Source: Joostella atrarenae (GTDB taxonomy: Bacteria; Bacteroidota; Bacteroidia; Flavobacteriales; Flavobacteriaceae). From it: a DNA stretch of 64,000 nt. Every line of letters begins with the position of its first letter. Position 1 is the stretch's first letter. The stretch spans positions 62,548 through 126,547 of the forward strand of contig NZ_JAETXX010000008.1 in assembly GCF_021764745.1 (NCBI RefSeq). The letters are read 5' to 3'. The notes below the pieces were generated by a model, which was not told the origin of the DNA, made no database searches, and saw nothing but the letters and a program-made list of their open reading frames with translations. Below are positions 17,741-42,004 of the stretch, piece after piece. The translations under genes were made by a program, and so were the position numbers.

Positions 17741-18338
17741 TAATGTAATCGTAATGCATAGAATGTACTACCCCATTTGATGGATGAATATCTGCTGAAG
17801 CTATTTGAGCATCTCGAACTGTATTTCCATCCGCAGAATTAAATTTTACAAATACAGGACCAACCCCATATACTGGATCTATCTCTTCTTCTGTAAAAAG
17901 TTGAATCTCTGCATTTCCAATAGAAGTAATAAACACCCCTCCATCTTGCCTTGCCGGAATATCATCTCGCATATAAACATCTGTGAATACATGGTTTAAT
18001 AATATTTCTTTACAGACTTCAGGATCTGTTTCTGCAATCGTCTCTAAATTCTGATTGTACAGCCATCTTCTAATAGAATGAGATGTTAATCCCATAAACA
18101 TAATTTCATCATAATCAGGATCTTCACCGCTAAATAAATTAGTTAAACCAGCATGATCTATCATCTCTACTGTTAAATCCCAGTTATAATCATCTGTAAG
18201 TAGATATTCATAAATGGTTTTATCCTCTAAGTCTCCGTTTGCAACTCCACTATCAATAAGGTTATTTTTTGTACAACTTAAGCACATAGTGAATACAAGG
18301 AAATAAACTGCTATCTTTTTCATCTGTATAATTTTCAT
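17727..18338 (-). CDS. Fasciclin (FAS1)-like domain lipoprotein
   Basis: 203 aa with lipobox (LSCTKN). C-terminal motifs LLNHVFTDVY and IHPSNGVVHSMHYDYI resemble the FAS1 H-box (HVV...NGViHviD) regions. Confidence 0.45.
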   Translation of the reverse strand: MKIIQMKKIAVYFLVFTMCLSCTKNNLIDSGVANGDLEDKTIYEYLLTDDYNWDLTVEMIDHAGLTNLFSGEDPDYDEIMFMGLTSHSIRRWLYNQNLETIAETDPEVCKEILLNHVFTDVYMRDDIPARQDGGVFITSIGNAEIQLFTEEEIDPVYGVGPVFVKFNSADGNTVRDAQIASADIHPSNGVVHSMHYDYIIDKL

Positions 18339-25878: not shown

Positions 25879-28800
25879 TTACTGGAGTCCCCGTTGGAGA
25901 ACTTCTTTAATACCTTCAAGGTTTTCAGAAAACTGCATCATTTGCGCTAGCACTTGTGCCATTTCATTTTTATCGCCAAAGCCTTTTAGCTTATTATTTT
26001 TCTGAAAAGTTTCCTTTATTTGTTCCCAGCGATCAAATTCAGTAGCACTCATCTGACCTACCAATTCTTTATATTTTAAGAGGTTTGCCTCAGCTGATGA
26101 TGTTAATGTTTGAGATTCACTTTCATAATGCGATAATAATAATGTTTGCAATTCATCATCATTCATTACAGGCACTACTTTAGCCACTAATTTATTCATA
26201 TCTCTATAAGAACCTTGAAGCTTAAATGATGGCTCTACGCGATATTCATCTTCCATAGCTGCACTCTTTATATACATTGTATTAACCTTTAAAATCGAGT
26301 TTCTAATTTTAACGATTTTCTCTAATACAGAAACGTATTCGTCAACCTCTTGCTTTGTATAATTACCTTCAAGATCAACCTCTTTGTTATTGTTCTCAAT
26401 TCTATCTAATAGTCTATAAACATCAGCAAAATTCTTACTGCTTAGCTGATGTAAAACTGGATTGGAAGTAAGCGAATTCTCAATTAAACTTAACCTAAAT
26501 AAATGAGCCGTATCTCCAATAATATCTCCTAAATTATAAATATCTGCCCTATTTGAAAGCATATCAGGAATTCTAAACTTTTCACCGCTCTCAGTATAAG
26601 GATTTCCAGCCATTATAACACAAAATTTCTTCCCACGAAGATCATAAGTTTTCGACTTTCCATTAAAAACACCTTCAACTTTTCGAGTACCATCGGAAAG
26701 GGATATAAACTTTTGCAAAAATTCTGGATTACAATGCTGAATATCATCTAAATATAGCATCACATTGTTACCCATTTCAAAAGCGAGGTTCAACTTCTTA
26801 AGCTCTTCTCTTGCTGCAGAATTATTTGCAGAAGCAGGGTCTACAGAGGTTATTTCGTGACCAATAGCAGGTCCATTAATCTTCATAAAAATAAGACCCA
26901 ATCTATTCGCTATATACTCCATCAACGTAGTTTTACCGTATCCAGGAGGCGAAATTAAAAGCAACATTCCCATTCTATCTGTTCGCTTTTGGTCTCCAAC
27001 CGTTCCCAATTGTTTGGCTAAATTATCTCCGAATAAGGGCAAATAAACTTGATCTATAAGCTTATTTCTAACAAAAGAACTCAATATTCTTGGCTTAAAT
27101 TCTTCTAGCCTAAGCATTTCCTTAAGCGAAACTGTAACTTCATGTTTTGCTCGTTTATAGGCATTATATGCTGGTACTTTTTCAGAAAAATAATTAGTTA
27201 AATGAGAAACAAAATCATGGTAATTAAAATTATAAACACCGTTACGGATAGATAAATGTTCTCCTCGTAGACCTACTATTTCTTCTGATGGAGAAACGAA
27301 TTTAGTATTTAATGCAGACTCATCTCCAAAAAGAATTAAACACACAACCTCATCAACATAGTTTAATTTAAAAGTTAGATTATCCTCTCCTAGACTATGC
27401 AAATAAGCTCCAACCCATTGTTGCACTAATGCTATCTTTGATTCATAAGAACCAAGGTTTTCAAGGCTGTTTTTAAACCTTAAATCACCTTTCTCTTCTT
27501 TTAGTTTATTTAGAAAGCCTTCTTTTATCTGAATTGCTACGCCACTCCTTTTAAAATCATTATCATTCTGAAGTTCTTCAAAAAGATAGTTACTAATATC
27601 AGTTGCTAGACTCGAATTAAAAATGCCTGTATTTTTTGAAAACTCGATAATCGACAATTGAAGCTTTTCTATGATAAAATTGTATTCCTTTGTGTTTGGA
27701 AAAAACTGAATTACATCTCCAGAGGCTTTTATGGTTTGGTTTAAGTGTTTTTTTTGTTCCTCTCCTATAAAGTTCCAAAAATATTGAGCATAAGCTCTTA
27801 TTCTTGGAGGATAAGATAACAGCTCCAAAGCTTTGTGTTTCGCTATAAATACTGATAAAATAGCTGTTGCATCTAAATCGTGTACTCCTTTAACATAACC
27901 CTCAGAATAATCTTTACTACTTTCTTCTTGAACCAACTTTAATAATGCTTCTTCAGAAAGCTCCAAAACATCTTTAGGGAATTTTTTAAAAATCTTAAAA
28001 GCTAAATAAGCACTTCGATACACAACATCGTTTTCCGAAATATAATCTTGGTTCCAAAATTCTTGAGATTCTAATAGCGTTTCATTTTCTATCTTCTGAT
28101 AAAAATCTGTTCCAGTAAGATGGTATTGCAAACTTCCATCAACATATAAAATTGTAAGATCTAAGGATTGATTATTAACACCAAACTTATGCTTTCCTAA
28201 ACGAATTATATTATTGCCATCTTCATATAATTCTTTTTTATCTTTAAGCTTACGCAGCGAATCTTCTTGAGCTGATTTTAATAAAGATTCTATCTCTTCA
28301 GCTTTCCCGCTATCTCCCATTTCTTGGAGCTGCTTAGCAATATCCCGCGACTTACTAACTAGCATGTCTGAAGCGAAATATGCATTTATATCTTTAGCTT
28401 CAGAAAAAGATTCTGCCTTTTTTCTTACCCCATTTAAAATCCTTTCTGCAGAATTTTGAAGAGCAATCGCCCTTTTATTTCTCTTTTCTACTAATTGATT
28501 TTTTCTAGCCTCAAAAGCATTATAGATCTCCTCTCTTTTTTCAATGATAAGACTGATAAACTCTTCAAAATCTGCAAATTTACCTTCTAACTCTTCTAAT
28601 TGAATGGATATTCTTGTTTGGAAATCTTCACACTTCTCTGGTGTATCAGAAATATCCAAGTAGTTAATTATACTCTGATCGATCAATTTAAGCTGTGCAG
28701 CAAAATCTGCCTGAGCTTCTTTGCTTCCTAAAGATTTTTGCTTCTTTTTAATCCTCGCTTTTAATTGATTAATCGTAGAAAAAATTAAAGAAATATTATT

Positions 28801-30753
28801 AATTATTTCTATAGAATGAGAGGTGTCTTCTATTTTTAAATTAGAAACTACATCTATAAGAAGTTCTAAATCTTTAGATATTTGATTTACCTCTTCCTCT
28901 AAATTTTTAGCGTCAATAACTTTTGCGATAGCATCTAGCGATTTCTCTTTTTCTTTCACCTTATTTTCATAAGGCATTAAAGCTTTATCATCTAGCAAAA
29001 ATTGCACACAACGTTCAGAAATCTTTTCAGATTGCTCTGCGATTCTATTTTCAAGTTCGTCAATAAATTTTTTATCTAAATAACGAACCTCCTTTAAACT
29101 AATAGCTTCTCCTCGTAAAGCACGTAACTGAGTGAGAAAATCTACAAAATCATTAATACTTTTAAAACTCGTGCTCTTAATTTTATTAAAAAGATGCGTA
29201 GCCGTTTTATCTATTTCCTGTGTTTTCTTTTGCGCATTCTTTTTTAACTGAAGTACTTTTTGAAATTCATCTATTGCAGCATTTGCTGCCTTATTAATTT
29301 CTTGTAACGGTTCATTTAAAAGTTTAGTTTCTTCTTCATTCAACCAATAATATGAATCTAAAATGTTTTTAGATTGCTTTGCCAAATCAGAATACAAACC
29401 ATCATAATTATCTTCTTTATTCAGTAAATTAACCAAACCATTTACTTCAGCCATCGCCTTCACAATGTCCTTATTTCCTATTTTATAAAGTAAAGAGTCT
29501 TGATGTTCCGACGGAATAATATCTCCTTTGAGATAAGGAGTTTGCCATATCTGAATTACATGATGTTTGCTTTGCTCATCTTCATTTTTGAAATAACATA
29601 ACTCACCATTATCTAATATTGTAAATCCGTTGCATATTATTGGAGTTTGTATTTTCTGAAGAATTACATTATAGCTCATTAAATTATACAAACCGCTTTC
29701 AGGAGCATAAAAAACATATAAATAATCCTCACCATTGGGAGAACTAATTCTCTCTTGAAACTTTACATTGGGAATACTATTATCAAAAATATTATACTCC
29801 CCAGTTTGCAAATAATAACCTGTTGGAAAAATCACTCCATGATCATCTGGAAGTAAAATACAACTGTTCTTGATACTCTCAATTTTCTGTACTTCCTTCA
29901 GCTTATGATTATAAATAAAATACCGAGCTTCCTCTTGGAAAGGCTTAATTTCGATAACAATTAAGTTTCCTAAGTTGGCAAATTTATATTGACCGTCATC
30001 TAGAGTTTGATCTCTATGAGTAACCTCTTCAGCATAAATACCTTTACCATTCTCTGTATTATCCTCCACTTTTATGGTAAGATCTCCGCCTATAGTTTCA
30101 ACGAAAACCTTATCCAAAATAGAAACATGAGCATGGAGACCTTGCCGATGCATATCTCTAGTTACCTCCTGCCAATTAAACTCATGTTGAGAAGGTAGCT
30201 TATATTCATGCTCACTACGATTATCTATATACTTTAACTGACCATCTTTTATTAACCACTTAAACGTTTTTATATCGGTCACACTATCACTAAGCTGAAA
30301 AACCATATACAAATAGTTTCCCACGATAGCGAACTTAGAAAAAATAGTATTTCTATAATATTTATATAGGTTTTGAAAGTCAGAATAAAAAACATCATCA
30401 TTTAAAACATCTAAAGAAATAGGATCAAAGTTGTTATTATTGAATTTATAAATACTAATAACATCACTAAGCTTTATATCTGTTCTTAATCCAAAATGAA
30501 CATTGTATCCAAACAAGCAAGTATCCGATAACGACAATATATCTCTAGCGATGCAATTGTTTTCTGTATTTATTCGATTGGTGGCGATAAGTTTTGTTTC
30601 CAAAGATCCAAAAACCTCTTTTCTACCTTCATTAAGGTTTTTTAGACGCTCTTGTAATTCAGTCTTCTGCTTCTGTAATCGATTCTGAATTACCTCATAG
30701 GTTCCAGCATCGAGTTTTTGCACGTTGTCTTCCTTTGTAGATTCCTTTGCCAT
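25879..30753 (-). CDS. Giant (1624 aa) cytoplasmic protein: beta-rich N-terminal region, long central coiled coil, single MoxR/AAA_5-like P-loop ATPase domain near the C-terminus
   Basis: Walker A LLLISPPGYGKTTLMEY (nt ~26935-26960). Walker B VMLYLDDIQHCNPEFLQ (nt ~26736-26753). Sensor-1-like CVIMAGNPYT. Arg-containing IPDMLSNRADIY. No TM segments. Residues ~430-800 are heptad-rich (E/K/L/Q). It is the last gene of the PspA-flotillin cassette. Confidence 0.75.
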   Translation of the reverse strand: MAKESTKEDNVQKLDAGTYEVIQNRLQKQKTELQERLKNLNEGRKEVFGSLETKLIATNRINTENNCIARDILSLSDTCLFGYNVHFGLRTDIKLSDVISIYKFNNNNFDPISLDVLNDDVFYSDFQNLYKYYRNTIFSKFAIVGNYLYMVFQLSDSVTDIKTFKWLIKDGQLKYIDNRSEHEYKLPSQHEFNWQEVTRDMHRQGLHAHVSILDKVFVETIGGDLTIKVEDNTENGKGIYAEEVTHRDQTLDDGQYKFANLGNLIVIEIKPFQEEARYFIYNHKLKEVQKIESIKNSCILLPDDHGVIFPTGYYLQTGEYNIFDNSIPNVKFQERISSPNGEDYLYVFYAPESGLYNLMSYNVILQKIQTPIICNGFTILDNGELCYFKNEDEQSKHHVIQIWQTPYLKGDIIPSEHQDSLLYKIGNKDIVKAMAEVNGLVNLLNKEDNYDGLYSDLAKQSKNILDSYYWLNEEETKLLNEPLQEINKAANAAIDEFQKVLQLKKNAQKKTQEIDKTATHLFNKIKSTSFKSINDFVDFLTQLRALRGEAISLKEVRYLDKKFIDELENRIAEQSEKISERCVQFLLDDKALMPYENKVKEKEKSLDAIAKVIDAKNLEEEVNQISKDLELLIDVVSNLKIEDTSHSIEIINNISLIFSTINQLKARIKKKQKSLGSKEAQADFAAQLKLIDQSIINYLDISDTPEKCEDFQTRISIQLEELEGKFADFEEFISLIIEKREEIYNAFEARKNQLVEKRNKRAIALQNSAERILNGVRKKAESFSEAKDINAYFASDMLVSKSRDIAKQLQEMGDSGKAEEIESLLKSAQEDSLRKLKDKKELYEDGNNIIRLGKHKFGVNNQSLDLTILYVDGSLQYHLTGTDFYQKIENETLLESQEFWNQDYISENDVVYRSAYLAFKIFKKFPKDVLELSEEALLKLVQEESSKDYSEGYVKGVHDLDATAILSVFIAKHKALELLSYPPRIRAYAQYFWNFIGEEQKKHLNQTIKASGDVIQFFPNTKEYNFIIEKLQLSIIEFSKNTGIFNSSLATDISNYLFEELQNDNDFKRSGVAIQIKEGFLNKLKEEKGDLRFKNSLENLGSYESKIALVQQWVGAYLHSLGEDNLTFKLNYVDEVVCLILFGDESALNTKFVSPSEEIVGLRGEHLSIRNGVYNFNYHDFVSHLTNYFSEKVPAYNAYKRAKHEVTVSLKEMLRLEEFKPRILSSFVRNKLIDQVYLPLFGDNLAKQLGTVGDQKRTDRMGMLLLISPPGYGKTTLMEYIANRLGLIFMKINGPAIGHEITSVDPASANNSAAREELKKLNLAFEMGNNVMLYLDDIQHCNPEFLQKFISLSDGTRKVEGVFNGKSKTYDLRGKKFCVIMAGNPYTESGEKFRIPDMLSNRADIYNLGDIIGDTAHLFRLSLIENSLTSNPVLHQLSSKNFADVYRLLDRIENNNKEVDLEGNYTKQEVDEYVSVLEKIVKIRNSILKVNTMYIKSAAMEDEYRVEPSFKLQGSYRDMNKLVAKVVPVMNDDELQTLLLSHYESESQTLTSSAEANLLKYKELVGQMSATEFDRWEQIKETFQKNNKLKGFGDKNEMAQVLAQMMQFSENLEGIKEVLQRGLQ

Positions 30754-30961
30754 TCTATATTACACTGAATTTGTTCCCCTCAACAGAATAATTGAGCGGT
30801 TATTATTTTTTTAAAGTTGATTGTATTTGACGAAAATTACCTAAAGAAAACAGAGGTTTTTTAAAATATAATGAAAGCAGTATTATTAGTAACTCCAATA
30901 AGAACTCAATTCAAAAAACCTCTGTTATATATAGCTATTAATCTTTAGCTAGCGTCTTTAT

Positions 30962-33040
30962 TTATCTATTCAACTTCGATATCGTACTATCTGAAATCCC
31001 TAAACCTTTCGCTAAGTTTAATAAATTTCCAAGCATCGTTTTATCTTCAGCACTATCAGATTTCATCTTAAGATCTGCAATCAAGCTAGCTATTGTTATA
31101 TTCTTAATATCTTCCGTAGAAACACCATATTTAATCGCAAAGTTTCTTACTTTTTCTAGTAAGTTGCCCTTAACATCGTCGCTTCCTAAAATAGCATCCT
31201 TAACTTCTTGAACATTGGTACTACTTTGTACCATTCTATCAAAACCTTTACCTCTTGTTATCTGACCTATAATCTGATCAAAGAACATCGTTTCTCCACC
31301 AACAATATCAATCTTAGCCGCTTTAAGAGCATCTCCTATAACTTGCGCTTGAGCATCTGCTATTTCTTTCTGAATATTGATATTAGCTAGATCTATTTGT
31401 AAGTCTTTGTTTAATCGTAATTTAAACTCTTCGTGTTCTTTACCTACACCATCTAGCTTCTTCATTGCAGCTGCTTTCTCCTCAATTCCTGAAGCATCAG
31501 CAAATGCTTTTTCTTTAATAACATCTGCTTCCGCAAGACCATCTTTACGTTTAGCTTCCGCTTTAGCTTCAATTCCGAGAGCTTCTGCTTTTGCTTTTTT
31601 CTCAATAATATTAGCTTCCACTAACCCTTGACGCTCGTTTGCATCTGCTTTTGCATGCATTACTTGTGCCTCAGACATACCAACAGTAGCCTCTTCTTTA
31701 GCTTGCGCCTCTGCCAATATTTTTCTTGCTTCTGCTTGTTTAGCACTAGCTTCTTTATGAGCTAAAGCTTCAATATTTATCTCTTCAGCTTTTTGCTTAG
31801 CTGCTTCTTTTTGTGCTTCGGCAGCTTTTATTGTTTTAATAAGGCTTTCTTCTGCTAGCGCTTCAGCAGTAGTAATCTTAACTTGTTTATCTCTATCTGC
31901 AGTTTTAAACGCTTGAATATCTTTCATGTTTTCCTGTTCTTCTACTACACCCTTCTCAAGCATAACACGATCACGAATAACATCTTGTATATTCTTTTTC
32001 TCTACCTCTACTACTTTCTCTTTTTCAATTTGCGCTAACGTAACAACTCTTTCTCTTTCTGTAGCCTCTAGCAATCTATCTTTTTCAACTCTTTCTGTCT
32101 CCACAGCATCTGTACGCTCCTTATTTTTAAGAGCTACAATAATTTGACGCTGCATATTCTCTTCAGCTACTTTTACTTTTTCTTCAGTAGAAATCCTTGC
32201 GCTTTCAGATTTTAAACGCTCTTCTTCATTAACCTTTAATGTTTCTGCTTCTTCTCTTGCTTTGATATTGGCAATTTCACGTTTTTGCTGCTCTTCTTTT
32301 TCTGCTAATTGTTTATTAAGCTCAAGAATAGTCTCACGAGCTTCTACATCCTGCTTACGAATAGTTTTCTCTTCATCTCTTTTGATAAGATTCGCTTTCA
32401 TATTTTGAACAGCAGTAAGCTCTGTAATTTTCTTAATACCCTCAGCATCCAAAATATTATCTGGTTTCAACTCTTTTACAGAAGTCTGCTCTAAAAAGTC
32501 AATCGCACAATCTTCTAAAGTGTAACCATTAAGGTCTGTTCCGATAATATTAACTATTTCATCTCTAAACTCTCTTCGCGCTTCATATAGCTCAATAAAA
32601 TCAAACTTTTTACCCACTGTTTTTAAAGCTTCAGAAAACTTAGCTTCAAAAAGGTCTTCGAGAGTAGCAATTTTTGATGCTCGATCTACACCAATAGTTT
32701 GCGCTACTTTTTTAATATATTCAATATCATTATTTACTCGAACAAAAAAAGCAACCTTAATATCGGCTCTCATATTGTCTTTACATATAAGTCCCTCATG
32801 AGCCAGTCTTTCAATCTGAATTTTCTTTACAGAGATATCCATTATCTCAGTTTTATGAAATACTGGTACTGTATAAAGCCCTCTATCTGTAGCTACTTTA
32901 GTCCCTCCAAATCCGGTTCTAATTAGCGCCTGACCCTGAGGTACTTTTTTATAAAACATCGCAATTATTGCGAAATAAACAATTATTAAAAATAGAAGTA
33001 TTCCTATTCCAATGCCAACAAGTGGTAAAATTGATTCCAT
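30962..33040 (-). CDS. yqiK: Flotillin / SPFH (band-7) family protein, YqiK-like, with an unusually long EA-repeat coiled-coil
   Basis: N-terminal TM, then SPFH motifs LIRTGFGGTKV and KDNMRADIKVAFFVRV, which match E. coli YqiK (FVRTGLGGQKV / KDRMRVDVVVAFFVRV). ~300 aa of AEAKAE-type flotillin repeats. 692 aa. Confidence 0.9.
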   Translation of the reverse strand: MESILPLVGIGIGILLFLIIVYFAIIAMFYKKVPQGQALIRTGFGGTKVATDRGLYTVPVFHKTEIMDISVKKIQIERLAHEGLICKDNMRADIKVAFFVRVNNDIEYIKKVAQTIGVDRASKIATLEDLFEAKFSEALKTVGKKFDFIELYEARREFRDEIVNIIGTDLNGYTLEDCAIDFLEQTSVKELKPDNILDAEGIKKITELTAVQNMKANLIKRDEEKTIRKQDVEARETILELNKQLAEKEEQQKREIANIKAREEAETLKVNEEERLKSESARISTEEKVKVAEENMQRQIIVALKNKERTDAVETERVEKDRLLEATERERVVTLAQIEKEKVVEVEKKNIQDVIRDRVMLEKGVVEEQENMKDIQAFKTADRDKQVKITTAEALAEESLIKTIKAAEAQKEAAKQKAEEINIEALAHKEASAKQAEARKILAEAQAKEEATVGMSEAQVMHAKADANERQGLVEANIIEKKAKAEALGIEAKAEAKRKDGLAEADVIKEKAFADASGIEEKAAAMKKLDGVGKEHEEFKLRLNKDLQIDLANINIQKEIADAQAQVIGDALKAAKIDIVGGETMFFDQIIGQITRGKGFDRMVQSSTNVQEVKDAILGSDDVKGNLLEKVRNFAIKYGVSTEDIKNITIASLIADLKMKSDSAEDKTMLGNLLNLAKGLGISDSTISKLNR

Positions 33041-33054
33041 AGTATTAATATTAA

Positions 33055-33759
33055 TTAGTCATTATAAGATTGTACAAAATAAAAGTTGCGATCGGCAGAT
33101 CTTTTAATTATTAAAATACTGGTTCCATAATTTAATGGGTCTCCAGTTAGAGATTTCACGTAAATTGATAATGTATCTCCATTAACTTTAACTTCAGCAT
33201 TCCCCATTTTATCTTCTGATATAGAAGAAAGCAATGTTGCTTTTCTCCCTAAATAATCAATAGGGGCATCTCCATCTTTATTTAAATTCTTAAAAAAGGC
33301 TTTAAAAGGAGTTGTTATTATTTTTGTCAATATCAGCGATGGAAGTAATGCCAAAAGCATTATTACAAAACCAATGGTATTATCGTAGGTGCCGGTAATT
33401 GAAGTTATCATAGCAGTACAAAACCACCAGATAAATATCCAAAATGTAAAAGTGAACATAAACGGAAGTCCTACAAAATTAAAATAGATAAGTAGAATTT
33501 GCCACCATTTTAATGGCTTCCTCCTTTTCCCTACCACATCTTCTTGATTGATCTCTGTATTGGAAATATCTTCAAAGTCCATATTCCCTCCTTCAATACC
33601 AGTATCTACATCCATATCAACATCTACATCGATGTCAAAGTCAGGCTCAAAATCCAATCCCCCAATCATGGTTGCAATCCAATATAGAATTAGAATTATA
33701 AGTAGTATTGATAAGATTATATTTACTTCAGAAAAAAGTATATTGGTTAATTCTGTCAA
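33055..33759 (-). CDS. YqiJ/NfeD-like membrane protein (multi-TM plus C-terminal OB-fold) with an acidic DxD repeat loop
   Basis: 234 aa with 4-5 TM helices. Acidic tract DFEPDFDIDVDVDMDVDTGIEGGNMDFEDISNTE. C-terminal beta-rich segment GRKATLLSSISEDKMGNAEVKVNGDTLSIYVKS fits the NfeD OB-fold pattern. The gene sits immediately upstream of the flotillin, as yqiJ-yqiK does. Confidence 0.55.
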   Translation of the reverse strand: MTELTNILFSEVNIILSILLIILILYWIATMIGGLDFEPDFDIDVDVDMDVDTGIEGGNMDFEDISNTEINQEDVVGKRRKPLKWWQILLIYFNFVGLPFMFTFTFWIFIWWFCTAMITSITGTYDNTIGFVIMLLALLPSLILTKIITTPFKAFFKNLNKDGDAPIDYLGRKATLLSSISEDKMGNAEVKVNGDTLSIYVKSLTGDPLNYGTSILIIKRSADRNFYFVQSYND

Positions 33760-33775
33760 TTTCAGTGATTTAAAA

Positions 33776-34477
33776 TTATTTCATTCCAAGTTGATTCTTC
33801 AACTTACTAAGCTCATCTTCTGCTTTGTTTTCTGAAACATCCGCAGCCTTATTTATTTCATCATCTATAGACTTAGATGTATTAGCTATCTCCCCATAAG
33901 CTTCTGCAAGAGCTTCCTCTTGGGCAACTTTTTCTTTCATTCTTTCTAACATCGAAACAGTTCCTGTACTGTCCAATTCGGCCATTTGCTTATTAAGATT
34001 TTTAGTCGCATTGCTAACTTTTACCCTTGCATTAAGAGTTTTTAACTCATTTTCCCACTTACCTATATTAGATTTTATAGCTTGGATATTTTTTTGAAGT
34101 TGAGCCACATTATTATCAAACTTCTCGGACTCTTGCGTAGCTTGTAATATCTGCTTATCTACTACTTCTTTTTGTAAAAGTGCTTCCTTTGCTAATCTGT
34201 CTGCTTCATTAGCATCCATTTGACCAGCTTGTGCCTTTTTAAGAATTAAAATAGCCTTATTCTGATAATCATCTGCTTTATTCTGATATTCTTCTTTATC
34301 ATTTTTAGCACGTATAGCTAACGCCTTCACCTTAGCCATAGCCTCAAGACTCTTTTCAAGATCTAATTTCATATCCCTAATTCCTTGTTCGGTCATCTTT
34401 ATAGGATCCTCCATTTTATCTATGGCAGCATTAGTTTCTGCTTCGCCAATTTTAAATAATCGTTTAAATATATTCAT
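33776..34477 (-). CDS. pspA: PspA/IM30 (phage-shock protein A / Vipp1 / ESCRT-III-like) family protein
   Basis: 233 aa, fully coiled-coil. N-terminus MNIFKRLFKIGEAETNAAIDKMEDPIKMTEQGIRDMKLDLEKSLEAMA aligns with E. coli PspA [48 protein letters not shown]. Confidence 0.85.
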   Translation of the reverse strand: MNIFKRLFKIGEAETNAAIDKMEDPIKMTEQGIRDMKLDLEKSLEAMAKVKALAIRAKNDKEEYQNKADDYQNKAILILKKAQAGQMDANEADRLAKEALLQKEVVDKQILQATQESEKFDNNVAQLQKNIQAIKSNIGKWENELKTLNARVKVSNATKNLNKQMAELDSTGTVSMLERMKEKVAQEEALAEAYGEIANTSKSIDDEINKAADVSENKAEDELSKLKNQLGMK

Positions 34478-34490
34478 GATTTTCTCTTTT

Positions 34491-34886
34491 TTAGTATTTT
34501 GAAAATTCTATAATTTTATCTGAGTACTCACTCATTAATAAACTCAACGAGTTTAAAGCAGCTTCAAGCTCATTAAGATCCATATTTTCAACTTGTAAAG
34601 TATCCCTAAAGATTACTTTATTTCCTGATTCGTCTAGCGCAAATGCTCCATGTATAATATCTCTGTTTTTTTGCAGTAAATTCTTAAAAACTGCCTCAGA
34701 CTGATTATTTATCTTGAAAAGGTATTGCTCCATTATTAATATAGGTGGAGCTACACCAACAATAAGATTTCGAATACCAGAGTTTTCCTTTTGGATAACC
34801 AAAACGCCTTCTTCAGGGTTTTCATGTGTAATATTGAAGTCTAACTCAAGTAGAAAATCCCGAGTTATGTTAAAATGGTTTTTCAT
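34491..34886 (-). CDS. Small soluble protein, possibly YbjN/YjfI (DUF2170)-like chaperone-fold partner of the PspA paralog
   Basis: 131 aa, no TM. 13-nt spacing to the pspA-like gene. The alternating hydrophobic pattern (GVLVIQKENSGIRNLIVGVAPPILIMEQYLF...) is reminiscent of YjfI-type proteins that precede PspA paralogs. This is a family guess only. Confidence 0.3.
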   Translation of the reverse strand: MKNHFNITRDFLLELDFNITHENPEEGVLVIQKENSGIRNLIVGVAPPILIMEQYLFKINNQSEAVFKNLLQKNRDIIHGAFALDESGNKVIFRDTLQVENMDLNELEAALNSLSLLMSEYSDKIIEFSKY

Positions 34887-35090
34887 AGATTATAGTTAGG
34901 TTAATGTTTAAATTTTTCGATGTTAATATTACAAAAAAATATTAACAAGCTTATTAAAGAAGACTCATAAGTTCCCCTATAAATATTATAAATATCACAA
35001 TCATACTTTATCATCTTTTAATTATTAATTCTTTTTTAATTATAAACAAATGCTGCATTTGAGAACAAAACCACAATGAATGTCATTTTT

Positions 35091-35152
35091 TTTGCTAATT
35101 TTGTTAGACTAATTTACAATAAATCTTCTTAATTGCAAATATAATTAGCAAA
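35091..35152 (+). promoter_or_regulatory. Divergent promoter/operator region: candidate -7 box TAATTTTG (35097-35104) flanked by inverted AATTAGCAAA-type half-sites
   Basis: TTTGCTAATT (35091-35100) is the reverse complement of AATTAGCAAA (35143-35152). A third related copy AATTGCAAAT is at 35131-35140. The region lies between the XRE/S24-like regulator gene and the PspA-cassette. Confidence 0.4.
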
Positions 35153-35154
35153 AT

Positions 35155-35913
35155 ATGTCATTATTTGGAAAAAATATTAGAAAAATAAGAAGTTTAAAAT
35201 CGATGAGCCAGCAGGCATTTGCAGACTTATTTGACCTAAAAAGAGGCACTCTAGGAGCTTATGAAGAAGGACGTAGCGAACCTAAAATAGATACTATTAT
35301 TAAGATTGCTAATTATTTTAGCATTCCAATAGATCACTTGCTAACAAAAGAATTAACCGTAAACGAGCTTTTAAAATTTCGTGGAGGTGTTGAACGTTAC
35401 AATACGGAAATATCGAATCAATTATTTTTTAAAAGAATTCCCTGTATCCCTTCAGAAAGAATTAAAGAGTATTCTGAAAATTTTAATAACACTGATTATA
35501 TTGAGAATATTCCCTATGTATTATTGCCAATCACAGAAGGATCTGAAATGAGAAGCTTTATAATTAACAACCTAGAAATGAGTAAAAACAATAAAGGTTT
35601 TTACCCTAAAGATGTTGTTATTGGTAGTAAAGTAGATAATTTATCTCCAGAAATAATACAAGATGGAAAATTATATATAACCGTCTTAAAAGAAGAAGTT
35701 ATATTTAGAAGAATCTTCATTTCAAACACTAAAATCACCCTAAGAGCAGATCATCCAGGAGTTGAAGACATCATTCTAAAACTTACTGATATTAAAGAGC
35801 TCTGGAGAGTAGACTATGTTTTTTATCACCGAACATTAGAAAACAACACCGATTTAGAGGATAAAATAATGAAATTAGAAGAGCAATTTAAACAATTAAA
35901 ATCTGAATTATAA
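35155..35913 (+). CDS. XRE-family HTH transcriptional regulator with LexA/CI (peptidase S24)-like C-terminal domain
   Basis: N-terminal HTH: IRKIRSLKSMSQQAFADLFDLKRGTLGAYEEGRSEPKIDTIIKIANYFSIPIDHLL. The C-terminal beta-rich domain has a GSEM segment (compare S24 GDSM) and a ITVLKEE Lys region. The catalytic dyad is not certain. Confidence 0.6.
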   Translation: MSLFGKNIRKIRSLKSMSQQAFADLFDLKRGTLGAYEEGRSEPKIDTIIKIANYFSIPIDHLLTKELTVNELLKFRGGVERYNTEISNQLFFKRIPCIPSERIKEYSENFNNTDYIENIPYVLLPITEGSEMRSFIINNLEMSKNNKGFYPKDVVIGSKVDNLSPEIIQDGKLYITVLKEEVIFRRIFISNTKITLRADHPGVEDIILKLTDIKELWRVDYVFYHRTLENNTDLEDKIMKLEEQFKQLKSEL

Positions 35914-36052
35914 TTTACTTCTATAAACCCCAGAAATAATAATACTAAATCGGGAGATAAAAGTTAACTATAAGCCAAATATATATTTTGTTTAACTTTT
36001 AACATAACTATATTGAACATTTTGTAATTTTACTATTATAAAATTAATAGTT

Positions 36053-36709
36053 ATGGCAAAGAAGCAAACAACACCAGATAGATTGATCACATATTATATG
36101 GATTTTGTTCTTGAAAATGGGAAGAAACCAACATCTGTTTATGCATTTACAAAGCTCCATAATTTAAAAGAAGAAGATTTTTACAAATTTTATGCAAGTT
36201 TAGAAGTGCTTGAGAAAGAGATTTTTAAAGCTTTTTTTGACAACACCTTTCTACTTTTAGACAAAAATGAAGAATACCATACTTACAATCCTAAAAACAA
36301 GTTATTAAGTTTCTATTTCTCTTTTTTCGAGTTACTTACTGCTAATCGAAGCTATGTAGTTCAAACACTCAAAGGAAAAGAAAGTAATTTAAAATCCTTG
36401 AGTGTTTTACAACATCTTAGAACTGCTTTTATATCCTATATTAAGCAACTTCAAATAGAAGTTCCAAAAATTGAAAATAAATCAGTTTCAAAGTTTCAAA
36501 ACAAATCTTTTGAAGAAGCTGCATGGATCCAATTATTGCTAACCTTAAAATTCTGGCTAGACGATACTTCTCCTTCCTTTGAAAAGACAGATATATTCAT
36601 TGAAAAATCACTACAAGCAGGTTTTGACCTTATCGATATCAAACCTTTTCAAAACATCTTAGATTTTGGGAAATTTATAATTAAAGAACGAACAAACTTT
36701 ACCGTATGA
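36053..36709 (+). CDS. TetR/AcrR-like transcriptional regulator
   Basis: The N-terminal 50 aa fit the TetR HTH pattern (TPDRLITYYMDFVLENGKKPTSVYAFTKLHNLKEEDFYKFYASLE), followed by an all-helical C-terminal domain. Overlaps the next gene by 4 nt (ATGA). Confidence 0.55.
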   Translation: MAKKQTTPDRLITYYMDFVLENGKKPTSVYAFTKLHNLKEEDFYKFYASLEVLEKEIFKAFFDNTFLLLDKNEEYHTYNPKNKLLSFYFSFFELLTANRSYVVQTLKGKESNLKSLSVLQHLRTAFISYIKQLQIEVPKIENKSVSKFQNKSFEEAAWIQLLLTLKFWLDDTSPSFEKTDIFIEKSLQAGFDLIDIKPFQNILDFGKFIIKERTNFTV

Positions 36710-38016
36710 AAACATTAGATAAAATCCCAACGGGAAAAATACAACGTGCGGGAAAGTTTCTTCAAACAGGAGCTAAGGTCGGAGCTAATTATATAAAATA
36801 CTACGGTGATAAAATTGTGACTTCAGAAGAGGCTGCTAGAGGGAGATTGAATAAAAATAATGCAGAAGATATTTATGACGGACTAAAAAGTTTAAAAGGA
36901 AGTGCCTTAAAAGTTGCTCAAATGTTGAGCATGGAGAAAAGTATTTTACCACGAGATTATGTAGAAAAATTCTCGTTGGCCCAGTTTTCTGTTCCTCCGC
37001 TATCTCCTCCTCTTGTTATTAAAACATTCAAAAAATATTTTGGAAGACACCCTGAAGATATTTTTGATACTTTTAATGCTACTTCTGTAAATGCAGCAAG
37101 CATTGGTCAAGTTCATATCGCGGAAAAAAATGGTAAGAAATATGCTATCAAAATTCAATATCCAGGCGTTGCAGAAAGCATTGCTACAGATTTAGCTTTG
37201 GTGAAGCCAATTGCCATTAAAATGTTTAACATAAAAGGGAAGGATTCTGATAAATACTTTAAAGAGGTTGAACATAAACTTATTGAAGAGACCAACTACT
37301 TACTAGAGGTAAAACAGAGCAAGGATATTGCTATGTCTTGCAACCATATTCCTAATTTACTATTCCCAAAATACTATGAAGATTTATCTTCAGAACGTAT
37401 TATCACAATGGATTATATGAAAGGCAAACATATGTCTGAATTCACAAAAGATAATAAAGACGAAAAGGTTGCTAATACGATTGGTCAAGCTTTATGGGAT
37501 TTTTACATGTATCAAATTCATAAACTAAAAAAGGTCCATGCAGATCCACACCCTGGCAATTTTTTAATCAGTGATGAAGCTAAACTAATTGCTTTGGACT
37601 TCGGATGTATGAAAGAGGTTCCTGAGGACTTTTATATTCCTTATTTTGAACTAGCTGAAAAGGACACTATCAATAATCCAAAAATATTTGAAGATAAATT
37701 ATATGAATTAGAGATTTTAAAACCCGAAGATACAACAGAAGAAAAGGTTTTCTTTAAAGCGCTTTTTCATGAGATGTTAAGCATTTTTACGAAACCATTT
37801 CACAATGAAGTTTTTGATTTCTCTGATGCAGGATTCTTTCAAAGTATTGCCCAATTAGGTGAAAAATATAATAACGATTCCCAATTACGGAAAATGAATG
37901 GAAATAGAGGTTCTAAACACTTCATCTATATCAACCGTACTTTCTTTGGACTATATAATTTAATGTTCGACTTAAAAGCCAAAGACATTAAAATAAACAA
38001 CTTTACTAACTACTAA
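36706..38016 (+). CDS. ABC1/UbiB/AarF-family atypical protein kinase-like protein
   Basis: 436 aa. Motifs SIGQVHIAEKNGKKYAIKIQYPGV (ABC1 nucleotide-binding Lys region) and HADPHPGNFLI (catalytic loop). Confidence 0.75.
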   Translation: MKTLDKIPTGKIQRAGKFLQTGAKVGANYIKYYGDKIVTSEEAARGRLNKNNAEDIYDGLKSLKGSALKVAQMLSMEKSILPRDYVEKFSLAQFSVPPLSPPLVIKTFKKYFGRHPEDIFDTFNATSVNAASIGQVHIAEKNGKKYAIKIQYPGVAESIATDLALVKPIAIKMFNIKGKDSDKYFKEVEHKLIEETNYLLEVKQSKDIAMSCNHIPNLLFPKYYEDLSSERIITMDYMKGKHMSEFTKDNKDEKVANTIGQALWDFYMYQIHKLKKVHADPHPGNFLISDEAKLIALDFGCMKEVPEDFYIPYFELAEKDTINNPKIFEDKLYELEILKPEDTTEEKVFFKALFHEMLSIFTKPFHNEVFDFSDAGFFQSIAQLGEKYNNDSQLRKMNGNRGSKHFIYINRTFFGLYNLMFDLKAKDIKINNFTNY

Positions 38017-38029
38017 TCGGATTATAAAT

Positions 38030-38296
38030 ATGACGGACAGAGAAATAGATAGAATTATAGAAATGGCGTGGGAAGACCGAACTCCTTTCGACGCTATTTC
38101 TTATCAATTTGGTTATAGCGAAAAAGATGTAATCGAATTAATGCGAAAAGAATTGAAACGTAGCAGCTTTAAAATGTGGCGTGCACGTGTCCAAGGCCGC
38201 TCTACAAAACACTTAAAAAAGAGAAATTTTGAAGAAGGCCGTTTTAAATGTAGTAGGCAAAAACAAATAACCCAAAATAAAATCTCAAAAAGATAA
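38030..38296 (+). CDS. DUF2805/TIGR03643-family small protein
   Basis: 88 aa. IIEMAWEDRTPFDAI...WRARVQGRSTKHLKKR matches the conserved DUF2805 signature as remembered. Confidence 0.55.
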   Translation: MTDREIDRIIEMAWEDRTPFDAISYQFGYSEKDVIELMRKELKRSSFKMWRARVQGRSTKHLKKRNFEEGRFKCSRQKQITQNKISKR

Positions 38297-38351
38297 CTAT
38301 CTTCTTTATTTAAATATTCAGAAATTTTTCACCAAAACATGATTTTTAAAA

Positions 38352-40454
38352 TTAATCAACTTTAATAACACCAATCTCTGCTATTGTAGTTGTATTACCT
38401 TCTCCTGTTGTTTTATTCGCTATCAATTTAATATAGTTTGCTTCTACTGGATTGAAATTTATCTGCTGCTTAATTCTATTATTCTGTATATTCCCAAATT
38501 CTCCTTTATAGACTTCCTTCCATTTCTTTCCATGTTCACTTACTGAAAAAGTGTAATCGGTAATTAAACCATTTGGAAATCTAGCTTGCATAGGAGTATA
38601 AGTGAAACCTTTAATTATAATTTTCTCTCCAAGATTAATTGTTACCGACTGAATCTCATTTGGCTTTTTTTCTGAACTAAAATAAGTAGCTGGATCGTTA
38701 TCGATAAATTTAGTAGCCTCTTCCATTTTTCCAGAAGTCACACTAAAAACTTCCCACTTCTTTTTGGCGTATTCTAACATTACCTTTTTCACCTCTGTCT
38801 GCTCATTCGTATCTGTATTTACCGCTATTACATTTAACTCTTTTGCCTCTTGAACAACAAATGGTTTTTCATATTTTATTGAATTTTTTGTTGGTGTAGA
38901 CCCATCAAGGGTATAAAATATCGATATATTTTCATCAGGAACATGCATTGTTATAACCCCCTCTTTATTTTGCTTTATGGTCGGAAGCACTAACAAGTTT
39001 GGAGCTTTATACAATTCTACATTAGAAAGTGTAATTGCTCCTTTTGCCTTTTGAATGGAAACTCTTAATTTTGAAATAGTTTGCGTATCAAACCTTAATA
39101 TTCGCTTATATCCAATAGTAGTTTCTGTTACAATCGTTTCCCAGTCGTTATCTTTAAGAACTTCAACAGTGAAGTTTTGCACCCTTTGCCCTAATGGAAT
39201 ATACTCCTGAAGCACTATTCTATTTATTGCCGTTGGTTCAGAAAAAGAGAATATTACATTTGCTTCTGTAATCTCATTATCTGTTGCCCAATAAGTGGTT
39301 TTATTATCATCTATTAATAACTCTGGTCTAAAGTTATCATCATTACCTCTATAATTAGACGCTACAACTTTGGTATTTAAAGCCAAGTTTTCTGCAAAAT
39401 CTTTATCTAACTGTTTTCTTAATGCGATAAGCTGTTGTTCATCCAACTCATGCACCAATCCGCGTTTGTCTACGGGGAGATTTAATAAAAAGGAAGCGTT
39501 TCTTCCCACTGATTTATAATAAATATCTATTAACTCCTCTAGTGTTTTCACCTGATGATCTTCTGATGCATGGTAATACCAACCTGGTCTTATAGAAACG
39601 TCTGCCTCGGCTGGAAGCCAATGAGTACCATCTTCATGCCCACCACGCAATTCTTTATATCGTGGCCACCCAGGATAAATTTCATCCCTACGCATAATAC
39701 TCCAATTAGTCGCATTTGCTTTGCCGTCTTCGTTTCCTACCCAACGTACATCTGGTCCACCATCACTGAAAATAACGGCATTGGGCTGTAACTCTCTTAC
39801 TATAGCAACTGCCTTATCCCATTCGTAATAAGTTTTGTTATCAATCTTTCGGGTTTCATTAGCCCCTCCATAATATCCTGATCCTCCATTGGCACCATCA
39901 AACCAAACTTCAAAAATATCACCATAATTAGTTAATAACTCCCTGAGTTGCTCATGAAATATCTCTACATACTCTGGATTTCCATAATGTTCATTATTAC
40001 GATCCCAAGGAGATAAGTATACTCCAAACTTCAGTCCTCCTTCTTTACATGCTTCCGATAATTCTTTTATAAGATCTCCTTTTCCATTTTTATATGGAGC
40101 ATTTTTTATAGAATGTTCTGTGGTTTCGGTTGGCCAAAGACAAAAACCATCATGGTGTTTTGCTGTTATTATAATCCCTTTCATACCAGCTTCCTTCGCT
40201 ACACTCACCCATTGATTAACGTCTAAATCTGTAGGATTAAAAGACTTAGGACTTTCCCCTCCTAAACCCCACTCCATATCAGTAAACGTATTCATATTAA
40301 AATGAATAAAAGCGTAATATTCCAATTCTTGCCATGCCAACTGACGTTCAGAAGGAATTGGCCCAACGGCTTGTGGAGGAGTTACCTCTTGCTTACATGA
40401 ATATACAACAGTTGCTATAATAGCTAATATTAAAGTTTTGATGGTAGGTTTCAT
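38352..40454 (-). CDS. GH29 alpha-L-fucosidase with C-terminal F5/8-type C (discoidin)-like carbohydrate-binding domains
   Basis: Lipoprotein signal. GH29 motifs YYAFIHFNMNTF, AKHHDGFCLWPT and WFDGANGG. 700 aa, with beta-sandwich C-terminal repeats. Confidence 0.85.
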   Translation of the reverse strand: MKPTIKTLILAIIATVVYSCKQEVTPPQAVGPIPSERQLAWQELEYYAFIHFNMNTFTDMEWGLGGESPKSFNPTDLDVNQWVSVAKEAGMKGIIITAKHHDGFCLWPTETTEHSIKNAPYKNGKGDLIKELSEACKEGGLKFGVYLSPWDRNNEHYGNPEYVEIFHEQLRELLTNYGDIFEVWFDGANGGSGYYGGANETRKIDNKTYYEWDKAVAIVRELQPNAVIFSDGGPDVRWVGNEDGKANATNWSIMRRDEIYPGWPRYKELRGGHEDGTHWLPAEADVSIRPGWYYHASEDHQVKTLEELIDIYYKSVGRNASFLLNLPVDKRGLVHELDEQQLIALRKQLDKDFAENLALNTKVVASNYRGNDDNFRPELLIDDNKTTYWATDNEITEANVIFSFSEPTAINRIVLQEYIPLGQRVQNFTVEVLKDNDWETIVTETTIGYKRILRFDTQTISKLRVSIQKAKGAITLSNVELYKAPNLLVLPTIKQNKEGVITMHVPDENISIFYTLDGSTPTKNSIKYEKPFVVQEAKELNVIAVNTDTNEQTEVKKVMLEYAKKKWEVFSVTSGKMEEATKFIDNDPATYFSSEKKPNEIQSVTINLGEKIIIKGFTYTPMQARFPNGLITDYTFSVSEHGKKWKEVYKGEFGNIQNNRIKQQINFNPVEANYIKLIANKTTGEGNTTTIAEIGVIKVD

Positions 40455-40463
40455 AATATGGTT

Positions 40464-41999
40464 TTATAAAGTCTCGGCTGGATATGATACTTCTTTTTGT
40501 GTTTTCTTATTTATAGGTAATTGCGCATTACTTTCTTTTAGGTATTCAGAAAGTTCTTTTGCAAGCTCTTTTACCTTTTCTGGCTTTGCTGAAGCTAAGT
40601 TATTTTCTTCTCCTATATCTTCAGTAATATTATATAATTCAAAATGTTCATCTCTATAAAAATAAATCAATTTCCAATCCCCTTTTCTAATCATACTTGC
40701 AGTGCCTATTCCAGGTCCATCAACACCCCATCTATTTGGGTAATGCCAAAACAAAGGTCTATCCTGCTTTTTTATTTCATTATCCTTTAAAATTGAAACG
40801 AAACTCTCTCCATCAACTTCTTGAATAGTTTTAGGGGCATTTATTCCAACCATATCTAAAATAGTAGGAAAGAAGTCTTCAATTATTAAATATTGATTTG
40901 TTTGTGACCCAGCTGTTGTTACTCCTGGCCATTTAACGAGCATAGGCTCTCGAATTCCTCCTTCATACATAGATCCCTTTCCGCTAGCTAAAGGTTTATT
41001 ATGGGTGTTCAATTCTCCACCTCTAGCATGTGCACTGAGTCCTCCATTATCTGACATAAATAAAATGATTGTATTTTCATCTAAATTATTTTGTTCTAAA
41101 AAATCCATTATATCTCCTAAGCTTTTATCCATTCCCTCCAACATCGAGGCATATTTAGCTTCTGTTTCATCCAAACCATCATCCAAATATTTATGTATAA
41201 ATCGATCATCCCCATAAATAGGAATATGAACAGCATAATGTGCCATATACAAGAAAAAAGGCTCATTCTTTACACTATCTAAAGCTATTAATGCTTCTTT
41301 TGTTAGCGCTTCAGTTAAGAAAACATCTTTACCGTAATATTTTTCAAGCCCAGGAACATCATTTAAATGTTTGCGCTTATCGTTATTTCCATAATCTTCT
41401 GTACCCAAATAACTATGAGGCGACCCTGCTGCATGTCCAGCTATATTTACGTCAAAACCTAAGTTCAAAGGATTTTCTCCTGGAGTGTCAATGGCACCAA
41501 AATGTGCTTTTCCAACTTGTATCGTATTATACCCATTATCTTTAAGAATTTGCGGTAATGGAGTTGCTTGTACTGTTCTTTCTACTCCTGATACTTGAGA
41601 GAGTCCGTTTACATTCCACTTAGGAAAGTCTAAAACATCATCTTTTTTATCAGTAGGTGAATTTTTTACTAATGTCCAATTTGTAACACGATGCTTAGCT
41701 GCATTCATTCCTGTTATAAAGCTAATTCGAGTAGGAGAACAAACTGGTGTAGCATAGGCTTGAGTGAACTTCATCCCTTCTTTTGCCAGCCGCTCCATAT
41801 TTGGAGTATTGTAACGATCGTTAAAAGGTGTTTTCTTATCCCAAAAAGGAACTGATGTGTCTTGCCACCCCATATCATCTACAAGGAAGACCACTATATT
41901 TGGCTTAGCAGGTTCTTTCTCTTCTACTTTTTCACTCTTGTTCTCTTTGCATGAGATGAATAAACTACAAGCTAAAACTACAATCAATCTATAATACAT
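40464..41999 (-). CDS. Formylglycine-dependent sulfatase (S1 family)
   Basis: VVFLVDDMGWQD and CSPTRISFITG (the C-x-P-x-R FGly motif). The likely true start is the internal Met (MYYRLIVVLACSLFISC, lipoprotein signal) at 41999, which removes the 34-nt overlap with the upstream GH95. Confidence 0.85.
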   Translation of the reverse strand: MYYRLIVVLACSLFISCKENKSEKVEEKEPAKPNIVVFLVDDMGWQDTSVPFWDKKTPFNDRYNTPNMERLAKEGMKFTQAYATPVCSPTRISFITGMNAAKHRVTNWTLVKNSPTDKKDDVLDFPKWNVNGLSQVSGVERTVQATPLPQILKDNGYNTIQVGKAHFGAIDTPGENPLNLGFDVNIAGHAAGSPHSYLGTEDYGNNDKRKHLNDVPGLEKYYGKDVFLTEALTKEALIALDSVKNEPFFLYMAHYAVHIPIYGDDRFIHKYLDDGLDETEAKYASMLEGMDKSLGDIMDFLEQNNLDENTIILFMSDNGGLSAHARGGELNTHNKPLASGKGSMYEGGIREPMLVKWPGVTTAGSQTNQYLIIEDFFPTILDMVGINAPKTIQEVDGESFVSILKDNEIKKQDRPLFWHYPNRWGVDGPGIGTASMIRKGDWKLIYFYRDEHFELYNITEDIGEENNLASAKPEKVKELAKELSEYLKESNAQLPINKKTQKEVSYPAETL

Positions 42000-42004
42000 A
42001 CTCT

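Follow-up and report, generated by a model that had tools for sequence, protein, structure and literature searches.

What does a LexA/CI-fold regulator control when it stands divergent from an envelope-stress operon, and can it still be switched by cleaving itself? We examined this question for a gene of Joostella atrarenae (assembly GCF_021764745.1) that lies in a 64,000-nucleotide stretch of contig NZ_JAETXX010000008.1 (positions 62,548 to 126,547 of the forward strand), which we call the window and which sets the scope of our site and gene scans in Joostella. The gene faces a cassette encoding a CesT-like protein, PspA, a membrane protein, a flotillin, and an AAA+ ATPase. An earlier note, made from the sequence alone, took its product for an XRE-type helix-turn-helix (HTH) regulator with a LexA/CI-type C-terminal domain and for the likely controller of the cassette, which would become inducible by DNA damage or phage if that domain cleaved itself. 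Our analysis upholds the regulator and its target and overturns the mode of induction. We consider it probable that the protein is an autoregulated, non-cleaving repressor of a phage-shock-protein (PSP)-type envelope-stress operon, drawn from the LexA-like family that recognizes CTAA-N5-TTAG, and on the best reading it has no role in switching SOS, phage, or defence responses.

The open reading frame (ORF) and the 268-bp divergent spacer proposed in the earlier note were both recovered: the regulator ORF, 35155-35913 on the plus strand, encodes 252 aa, and 268 bp separate its start codon from that of the first cassette gene on the minus strand. The identical protein is annotated in Joostella as WP_236959563.1. 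The regulator gene and its domains are as follows.

35155..35913, plus strand: regulator gene (ORF call; 252 aa), catalytically dead, from the CTAA-N5-TTAG group of the non-canonical LexA proteins of Bacteroidota
35167..35352, plus strand: HTH_3 / HTH_19 DNA-binding domain, residues 5-66 (Pfam E 2e-11)
35431..35823, plus strand: S24-fold pseudo-protease domain, residues 93-223 (Foldseek, alignments)
35845..35907, plus strand: C-terminal amphipathic helix, residues 231-251 (AlphaFold2 model)

In an AlphaFold2 model built from 120 relatives (mean predicted local distance difference test score 84), the HTH domain, which is nearly invariant across those relatives, forms five helices and is followed by a disordered linker (77-89), a beta-rich domain (93-223), and the terminal helix (231-251). 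When this model was compared with the PDB by Foldseek, LexA, lambda CI, and 186 CI came out on top, with root-mean-square deviations of 2.5-3 Å over ~95-100 residues of the C-terminal domains. At the level of sequence, the Pfam S24 profile (PF00717) stays below threshold on the window protein (17.5 versus 23.3 bits) and is matched by 65 of 86 family members. Matches from a PDB sequence search cover the HTH only, NCBIfam gave generic HTH matches only, and an hhalign comparison with lambda CI matched the HTH alone and was uninformative. Given the Pfam HTH domain and the Foldseek LexA/CI fold, the regulator is an XRE-HTH plus LexA/CI-fold protein, in agreement with the earlier note.

A family with this architecture has been described. 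Non-canonical LexA proteins of Bacteroidota consist of an HTH_3 and an S24 domain and fall into two groups (PMC8565304, Sanchez-Osuna et al. 2021). One group recognizes GGA-N5-TCC and, in Flavobacteriaceae, controls the SOS regulon, and the other binds CTAA-N5-TTAG, as established by electrophoretic mobility shift assay (EMSA) and mutagenesis on WP_025606010.1 of P. actiniarum. According to the same work, many Flavobacteriaceae have homologues of both groups with the SOS response under the GGA group, the CTAA homologue is given no function, and the cleavage determinants (Ala-Gly, Ser-Lys dyad) are stated to be conserved in both groups; PspA is mentioned nowhere in it. We found that the window protein's C-terminal region is 28% identical to that of WP_025606010.1 (BLASTP E 1e-9), and that the hhalign family profile matches the same region at a probability of 97% and E 4e-11, reaching the terminal helix; the match to the GGA-group reference is weaker (E 4e-6). 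The terminal helix of the window protein aligns to the C-terminal LDLQKEVQKLKK helix of WP_025606010.1 and is common to the canonical members of the non-canonical LexA family; it is probably an oligomerisation element. The Christiangramia forsetii orthologue (P0004, WP_011710501.1) appears in PMC8565304 only among the BLASTP homologues of Table S9.

The resemblance does not extend to the protease residues. Alignments with canonical members and with the EMSA-tested WP_025606010.1 reveal that all three self-cleavage determinants are replaced. The scissile Ala-Gly is K104-E105 (35464-35469), with K104-E105-Y106 aligning on the canonical A-G-Y; the Ser nucleophile is E141 (35575-35577), in a motif N-L-E-M (residues 139-142) that stands in place of G-[DN]-S-M; and the Lys base is R185 (35707-35709), with R185-R186 where canonical members have K-R. 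Among 120 close relatives, E141 is found in all 120 and R185 in 119. An exhaustive search with the C-terminal domain yielded 191 cluster representatives, nearly all of 240-280 aa and of the same layout, and the 86 that were aligned occupy two coupled states: a canonical one (A-G-Y, G-[DN]-S-M, K-R; n = 15) and a derived one, to which the window protein belongs, in which other residues have taken the places of the Ala-Gly, the Ser, and the Lys alike (34 with E/R, 9 with A/R, and 7 with D/R). Two other readings of the active site were considered and rejected. The earlier note had taken GSEM for a degenerate GDSM; this motif exists (G129-S-E-M132), but it is unconserved in the family and out of register with the S24 active site. 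An hhalign alignment with E. coli LexA pointed to S143, a position that is S, T, or A in the family; its register is off by two residues, an artefact of the LexA motif G-M-S-M, and two other alignments put E141 at the place of the Ser nucleophile. Because the Ala-Gly, Ser, and Lys are all replaced, derepression by RecA-stimulated autocleavage should not be possible, and no self-cleavage is predicted for this protein. SOS or phage induction by that route is thus not supported, and the fallback of the earlier note, a non-cleaving CI-like domain, is the option that the sequence bears out.

We then asked which DNA sites the protein would recognize. An alignment and scan of the intergenic regions of orthologous loci defines the operator as a 15-bp palindrome, GCTAA-N5-TTAGC, identical to the published CTAA-N5-TTAG motif. 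A scan of 80 loci (1.58 Mb) gave 335 matches with at most one mismatch, and 299 of them sit at fixed positions between -200 and +170 relative to the regulator ATG, which corresponds to 10.1 matches per kb near the ATG versus 0.023 per kb elsewhere (~435-fold). The operators of the window and the predicted promoter elements with which they overlap are listed here.

35135-35149: O1, GCAAA-tataa-TTAGC, 6 bp upstream of the regulator ATG
35094-35108: O2, GCTAA-ttttg-TTAGA
35308-35322: Oi, intragenic operator, GCTAATTATTTTAGC, codons 52-56 (A-N-Y-F-S) of the regulator
35109..35139, minus strand: predicted sigma-A promoter toward the cassette, with -33 box TTTG (35139-35136), 19-nt spacer, and -7 box TAAATTAG (35116-35109)
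35096..35103, plus strand: predicted -7 box for transcription of the regulator, located in the spacer of O2; TAATTTTG here and TAATATTG in most relatives

Across the loci, O1 (GCAAA-N5-TTAGC, about -20, range -22 to -18) is present with one mismatch in 80 of 81, and O2 (GCTAA-N5-TTAG[A/T/G], about -61, range -64 to -59) with at most one mismatch in 77 of 81. Two further sites of the GCTAA-N5-TTAGC type occur in relatives: O3 at -93 (at most two mismatches, 70/81) and O4 at about -150 (at most one mismatch, 44/81). Measured start to start, O1 and O2 are 41-42 bp apart and O2 and O3 32 bp, both near whole helical turns. The regulator thus has CTAA-N5-TTAG sites in its own promoter, as is characteristic of the CTAA group: O1 and O2 in the window, O1 to O4 across the 80 loci.

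The intragenic site deserves separate attention. Oi is the sole perfect match to the palindrome in the window and is perfect in 77 of 81 loci. The codon for Ala52 is GCT in all 80 of 80 loci, compared with a gene-wide frequency of 0.44, and that for Ser56 is AGC in 77 of 81, compared with 0.20, while at the invariant residues that flank Oi the commonest codon is used only 27-80% of the time. We read this pattern of codon use as that of a functional auxiliary operator, which selection at synonymous positions appears to preserve. A further recurrent match (at most one mismatch) lies at +381 in the regulator coding sequence of 7 of the 80 loci; it does not occur in the window. The other window match with at most one mismatch, GCTAAATAAATTAGT at 18129-18143 within ORF 17727-18338 (minus strand), is at chance level (3.2 expected).

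These sites also account for the repeats that had first drawn attention to the locus. The 10-mer TTTGCTAATT is confirmed to have just two copies in the window, one at 35091-35100 and the other, as the exact reverse complement, at 35143-35152. The inverted repeat that they form can be lengthened to 11 exact bases, or to 16 nt at 88%. The copy number of the 10-mer is not significant by itself (1.1 expected; 24 of 100 shuffles reach 2), and its significance rests instead on conservation across orthologous loci. The related third word, AATTGCAAAT at 35131-35140, is likewise real and is the left half of O1. The geometry drawn from these words needs revision. They do not flank the regulator start, since both lie upstream of the ATG, and they do not bracket a -7 element, since TAATTTTG overlaps the first word. 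Reading the pair as one long-range palindrome was rejected: the first 10-mer is the left half of O2, and the second, 52 bp away, makes up the right half of O1, so that each belongs to a separate 15-bp operator, and the third operator is intragenic.

The genes on the minus strand form the cassette, which is listed below.

34491..34886, minus strand: CesT_Tir_1 / YbjN-like small protein, first cassette gene (Pfam E 9e-56)
25879..34477, minus strand: remainder of the cassette (Pfam; gene order as in C. forsetii)
33776-34477, minus strand: PspA (Pfam)
33055-33759, minus strand: multi-pass membrane protein
30962-33040, minus strand: band-7/flotillin (Pfam)
25879-30753, minus strand: DUF3686-DUF7902-AAA+ ATPase, 1624 aa (Pfam)

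In gene content and order (Pfam), the cassette matches the CesT/Tir-PspA-band-7-AAA+ PSP operon type of PMC11237479 (Ravi et al. 2024), which combines a CesT/Tir-PspA pair with transmembrane (TM)-band-7-flotillin, a YqiJ/YuaF-like membrane protein, and an AAA+ ATPase that is described as novel and carries a beta-propeller. In the accessible part of that paper, no regulator is named for this operon type. Our literature searches on DUF3686, and on PspA, flotillin, and XRE in Flavobacteria, returned nothing relevant.

To evaluate the linkage between regulator and cassette, we compared 81 loci, of which 80 come from one-genome-per-species contigs and one is the C. forsetii locus. Full-length relatives of the regulator, at 49-56% identity, occur across Flavobacteriaceae (Christiangramia, Maribacter, Dokdonia, Aquimarina, Tenacibaculum). 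In 80 of the 81 loci, the regulator is divergent from a CesT_Tir_1 gene, its most constant partner, and in ~70 the full cassette then follows. The right-hand neighbours differ between the window and the C. forsetii locus; therefore, the conserved unit comprises the regulator and the cassette. Conservation is far higher in the cassette proteins, with flotillin reaching 94% identity versus at most 56% for the regulator. As a separate observation, the Joostella regulator is unusually divergent (at most 56% identical to any relative), and its cassette proteins are 85-94% identical to those of Christiangramia.

The linkage extends to distant members of the dead clade (35-39% identical), in which all four on informative contigs are divergent from a CesT_Tir_1-PspA pair; the contigs of P0128, P0132, P0139, and P0224 are too short for gene context and stand outside this count. 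Three downstream contents are found there: a DUF4178/DUF350 type (L082), which has the same palindrome upstream; a flotillin-DUF3686 type (L085, L090); and a bare YbjQ-CesT-PspA arrangement (L088). In the GC-richer L085 (7900-8200), the promoter-proximal palindrome reads GCTCt-tattt-TGAGC and the intragenic position GCTCA-ttatt-TTGGC, which suggests that the letters of the dyad have drifted (CTAA to CTCA) with the N5 geometry kept.

In several Aquimarina and Sungkyunkwania genomes (L036 8700-9700, L038 8600-9700, L025, L042, L061, L070), the regulator, all operators, and the CesT-like gene are retained; there, a tblastn search of as much of the upstream flank as was available (at most 10 kb) detected neither PspA nor flotillin nor an AAA+ gene, and a small membrane protein or unrelated genes follow instead. 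At its smallest, the conserved unit thus consists of the regulator and the CesT-like gene. Since the pair is kept with differing downstream genes, and the CesT-like gene is kept without PspA, the regulator is linked to the CesT/Tir-PspA pair, and its closest tie is to the CesT-like gene.

A single locus, that of Christiangramia lutea (L078, 9700-10200), has a regulator homologue with no cassette nearby. There, O1 and O2 are absent and the intragenic site carries two mismatches (TCTAA..TTAGT); all sites are thus lost or decayed together in the sole cassette-less locus, which supports their function as operators of the cassette regulator. The next gene downstream encodes an RNase_T/GIY-YIG exonuclease; PMC8565304 predicts that genes of this class are under SOS control. 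In view of the pairing in 80 of 81 loci and in distant relatives, the protein is almost certainly the controller of the divergent cassette, as the earlier note had proposed.

A defence function, which the earlier note had also considered, finds no such support. PADLOC matched none of the cassette proteins except for a marginal P-loop match (mad8, E 9e-4), the cassette is of a PSP operon type, and the locus has ordinary chromosomal neighbours and the same arrangement across many Flavobacteriaceae genera. The locus is a conserved chromosomal module, neither mobile nor part of a prophage or defence island. One canonical Ser/Lys member (L083, 4830-8750) has no PspA nearby and lies ~2 kb from a gene with a PycTM domain (a Pycsar-type effector domain); cleavable relatives, unlike the dead clade, may sometimes occur in defence contexts.

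How would the operators act on transcription? Toward the cassette, the arrangement of minus-strand TTTG, a spacer of 18-20 nt (19 in 42), and TAnnTT(T/A)(G/A) recurs at the same position in all 45 non-redundant loci and is the pattern of Bacteroidota sigma-A promoters. A transcription-start map of F. psychrophilum places a TAnnTTTG box at -12 to -5 (PMC9723704), and the cassette transcript is predicted to start near 35104, within O2. The -33 box of the cassette sits in the left half of O1, and O2 covers about -4 to +11 of the same promoter. O1 is universally GCAAA rather than GCTAA because the deviation from T to A creates the minus-strand TTTG of the -33 box. On the plus strand, the O2 spacer is conserved (tattg), and those of O1 and O3 are not; the putative regulator transcript would start near 35108, with O1 and Oi downstream.

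We propose that the regulator binds, as dimers, to three 15-bp palindromes of this genome, O2, O1, and Oi. Occupancy of O1 would mask the -33 box of the leftward promoter into cesT-pspA-TM-flotillin-AAA+ and O2 its start, while O2 would also mask the regulator's own -7 box; O1 and Oi would lie in the path of the regulator transcript, downstream of its start. Since the operators overlap both promoters, their occupancy would shut both divergent transcription units, and their positions fit steric repression. The near-whole-turn spacings (41-42 and 32 bp), together with the CI-like C-terminal domain and its terminal helix, suggest that binding may be cooperative, possibly with looping. In evolutionary terms, homology and operator identity point to descent from the CTAA-N5-TTAG group of the non-canonical LexA family, with DNA specificity apparently kept.

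Several observations weigh against this proposal. The dyad has one mismatch in O1 and one in O2, and in published mutagenesis dyad substitutions abolish binding in vitro. O3 and O4 are absent from the window (35060-35080, compared with -93 in L001-L081), though most relatives have O3 and many have O4. The distance from O1 to Oi, 173 bp, does not correspond to whole helical turns. For the regulator, a strict plus-strand promoter scan found neither a conserved -33/-7 pair nor a good -33 box, and we infer its promoter from the -7 box alone because that pair was not found. Finally, the predicted cassette start would leave a leader of ~215 nt that holds a second conserved block (34924-34936), and this block could itself be the main cassette promoter.

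The second block reads TTT(T/C)GTA(A/T)TATT(A/G) on the minus strand and is found, in most orthologous loci, ~35-60 nt upstream of where cesT starts. In Joostella (window 34921-34947, core 34924-34936), it falls within a perfect 10-nt inverted repeat, TGTTAATATT / AATATTAACA. Some genera have CGTA at this position, recalling the extracytoplasmic function (ECF)-type 'CGT' -10 box of the band-7 genes of F. psychrophilum (PMC9723704). The block may serve as a proximal promoter, be recognized by another factor, or act in the leader RNA; an Rfam scan of the leader and the regulator gene gave no match.

Among the other explanations, the one that fares best holds that the protein activates the cassette, like ClgR or PspF, or combines self-repression with cassette activation. 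Both of these known PSP regulators are activators (PMC11237479), and O3 and O4 lie outside the core promoters. We nevertheless consider activation unlikely, since O1 includes the -33 box and O2 covers the start, positions that are typical of steric repression, and since the family is described as one of repressors (PMC8565304). It is quite improbable that a Ser/Lys-intact CTAA-group paralogue, rather than the dead protein alone, occupies the locus in Joostella: the sites co-vary with the dead paralogue and the cassette, and no second family member is encoded among the ORFs inspected around the locus (window 28000-42000). The conserved words might also be mere promoter elements of two divergent genes, with the regulator acting elsewhere or on nothing nearby, given that O1 overlaps a -33 box and O2 a -7 box in an AT-rich region. 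We regard this as very improbable, since Oi is a perfect palindrome within coding sequence whose synonymous sites are frozen, O3 and O4 fit the same palindrome without overlapping predicted boxes, the palindrome is the EMSA-proven motif of homologous regulators (PMC8565304), and the sites vanish together in the cassette-less locus of C. lutea. Hardly credible, lastly, is a canonical autocleaving LexA/CI switch that renders the cassette SOS- or phage-inducible: the S24 fold is present and canonical family members are predicted or shown to be DNA-damage-responsive repressors, but the Ala-Gly, Ser, and Lys have become K-E, E, and R, with the near-invariance among close relatives given above, and the SOS regulon of Flavobacteriaceae is assigned to the GGA-N5-TCC group (PMC8565304).

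For the non-cleaving repressor that we favor, derepression would have to be brought about in another way, by a ligand, a partner protein, or a protease acting in trans. Because the clade stays with the CesT/Tir-PspA pair even where the downstream genes differ, the likeliest input would be the state of that pair. Our leading guess, a tentative one, is feedback from the CesT-like protein or PspA, analogous to PspA-PspF.

Relative to the CTAA-group LexA WP_025606010.1, to which its homology is detectable, it has the same HTH_3, S24-fold domain, and C-terminal helix, the same dyad-N5-dyad operator, and multiple sites in its own promoter, which imply autoregulation. It differs in that all three self-cleavage determinants are replaced, in its intragenic operator, and in its visible target, which is the CesT/Tir-PspA envelope operon and not SOS genes; within the window, the visible targets are the regulator itself and the cassette only. 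It resembles lambda CI and 186 CI in joining an HTH to a C-terminal domain of S24 fold, in having several operators spread over a compact divergent promoter region, in its predicted autoregulation, and, probably, in cooperative binding via the C-terminal domain. In contrast to them, it belongs to a chromosomal housekeeping module, its catalytic dyad and scissile bond are gone, and it should not be RecA-inducible. 186 CI is inactivated by an antirepressor rather than by self-cleavage, and the window regulator is closer to 186 CI in this respect.

A dedicated regulator beside a pspA operon is also found in E. coli (PspF-PspA), M. tuberculosis (ClgR), and B. subtilis (LiaRS). PspF is divergent from the pspA operon, like the window regulator, and partner switching of the PspA-PspF kind is plausible here; the window regulator is not homologous to PspF or LiaR, and its site positions predict repression. 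ClgR also has a Cro/XRE-type HTH (PMC11237479), but it lacks the S24-fold domain and is an activator. A putative high-affinity auxiliary operator inside an ORF, downstream of promoter-proximal operators, recalls lac O2 in lacZ and gal OI in galE; in contrast to these, Oi lies within the repressor's own gene, in codons of the DNA-binding domain, and looping is a possibility only. IrvR of S. mutans (PMC7101444) is similarly a LexA-superfamily regulator of an environmental-stress response outside the RecA paradigm, in a different phylum and with different targets.

Altogether, the locus joins two gaps, a CTAA-group homologue that is given no function (PMC8565304) and a PSP operon for which the accessible part of PMC11237479 names no regulator, and it now supplies concrete operators, promoters, and residues for testing. 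The coordinated loss of the protease at three sites, with DNA specificity kept, is a clean example of the repurposing of a stress regulator. The locus also presents an operator inside the repressor's own gene that appears to be maintained by selection on synonymous sites. If the link holds, envelope-stress regulation in a major marine and gut phylum would become directly testable. More speculatively, and with considerable doubt on our part, a LexA paralogue that has irreversibly lost self-cleavage may have become the master repressor of the PSP-like membrane-stress system across Bacteroidota, sensing the state of the envelope through the CesT-like protein or PspA bound in its vestigial protease cleft, with control tightened by the intragenic operator. 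If true, PSP systems of Bacteroidota would have their first described regulatory mechanism, a repressor-based counterpart of PspA-PspF partner switching and a clear case of the rewiring of an SOS regulator to envelope stress.

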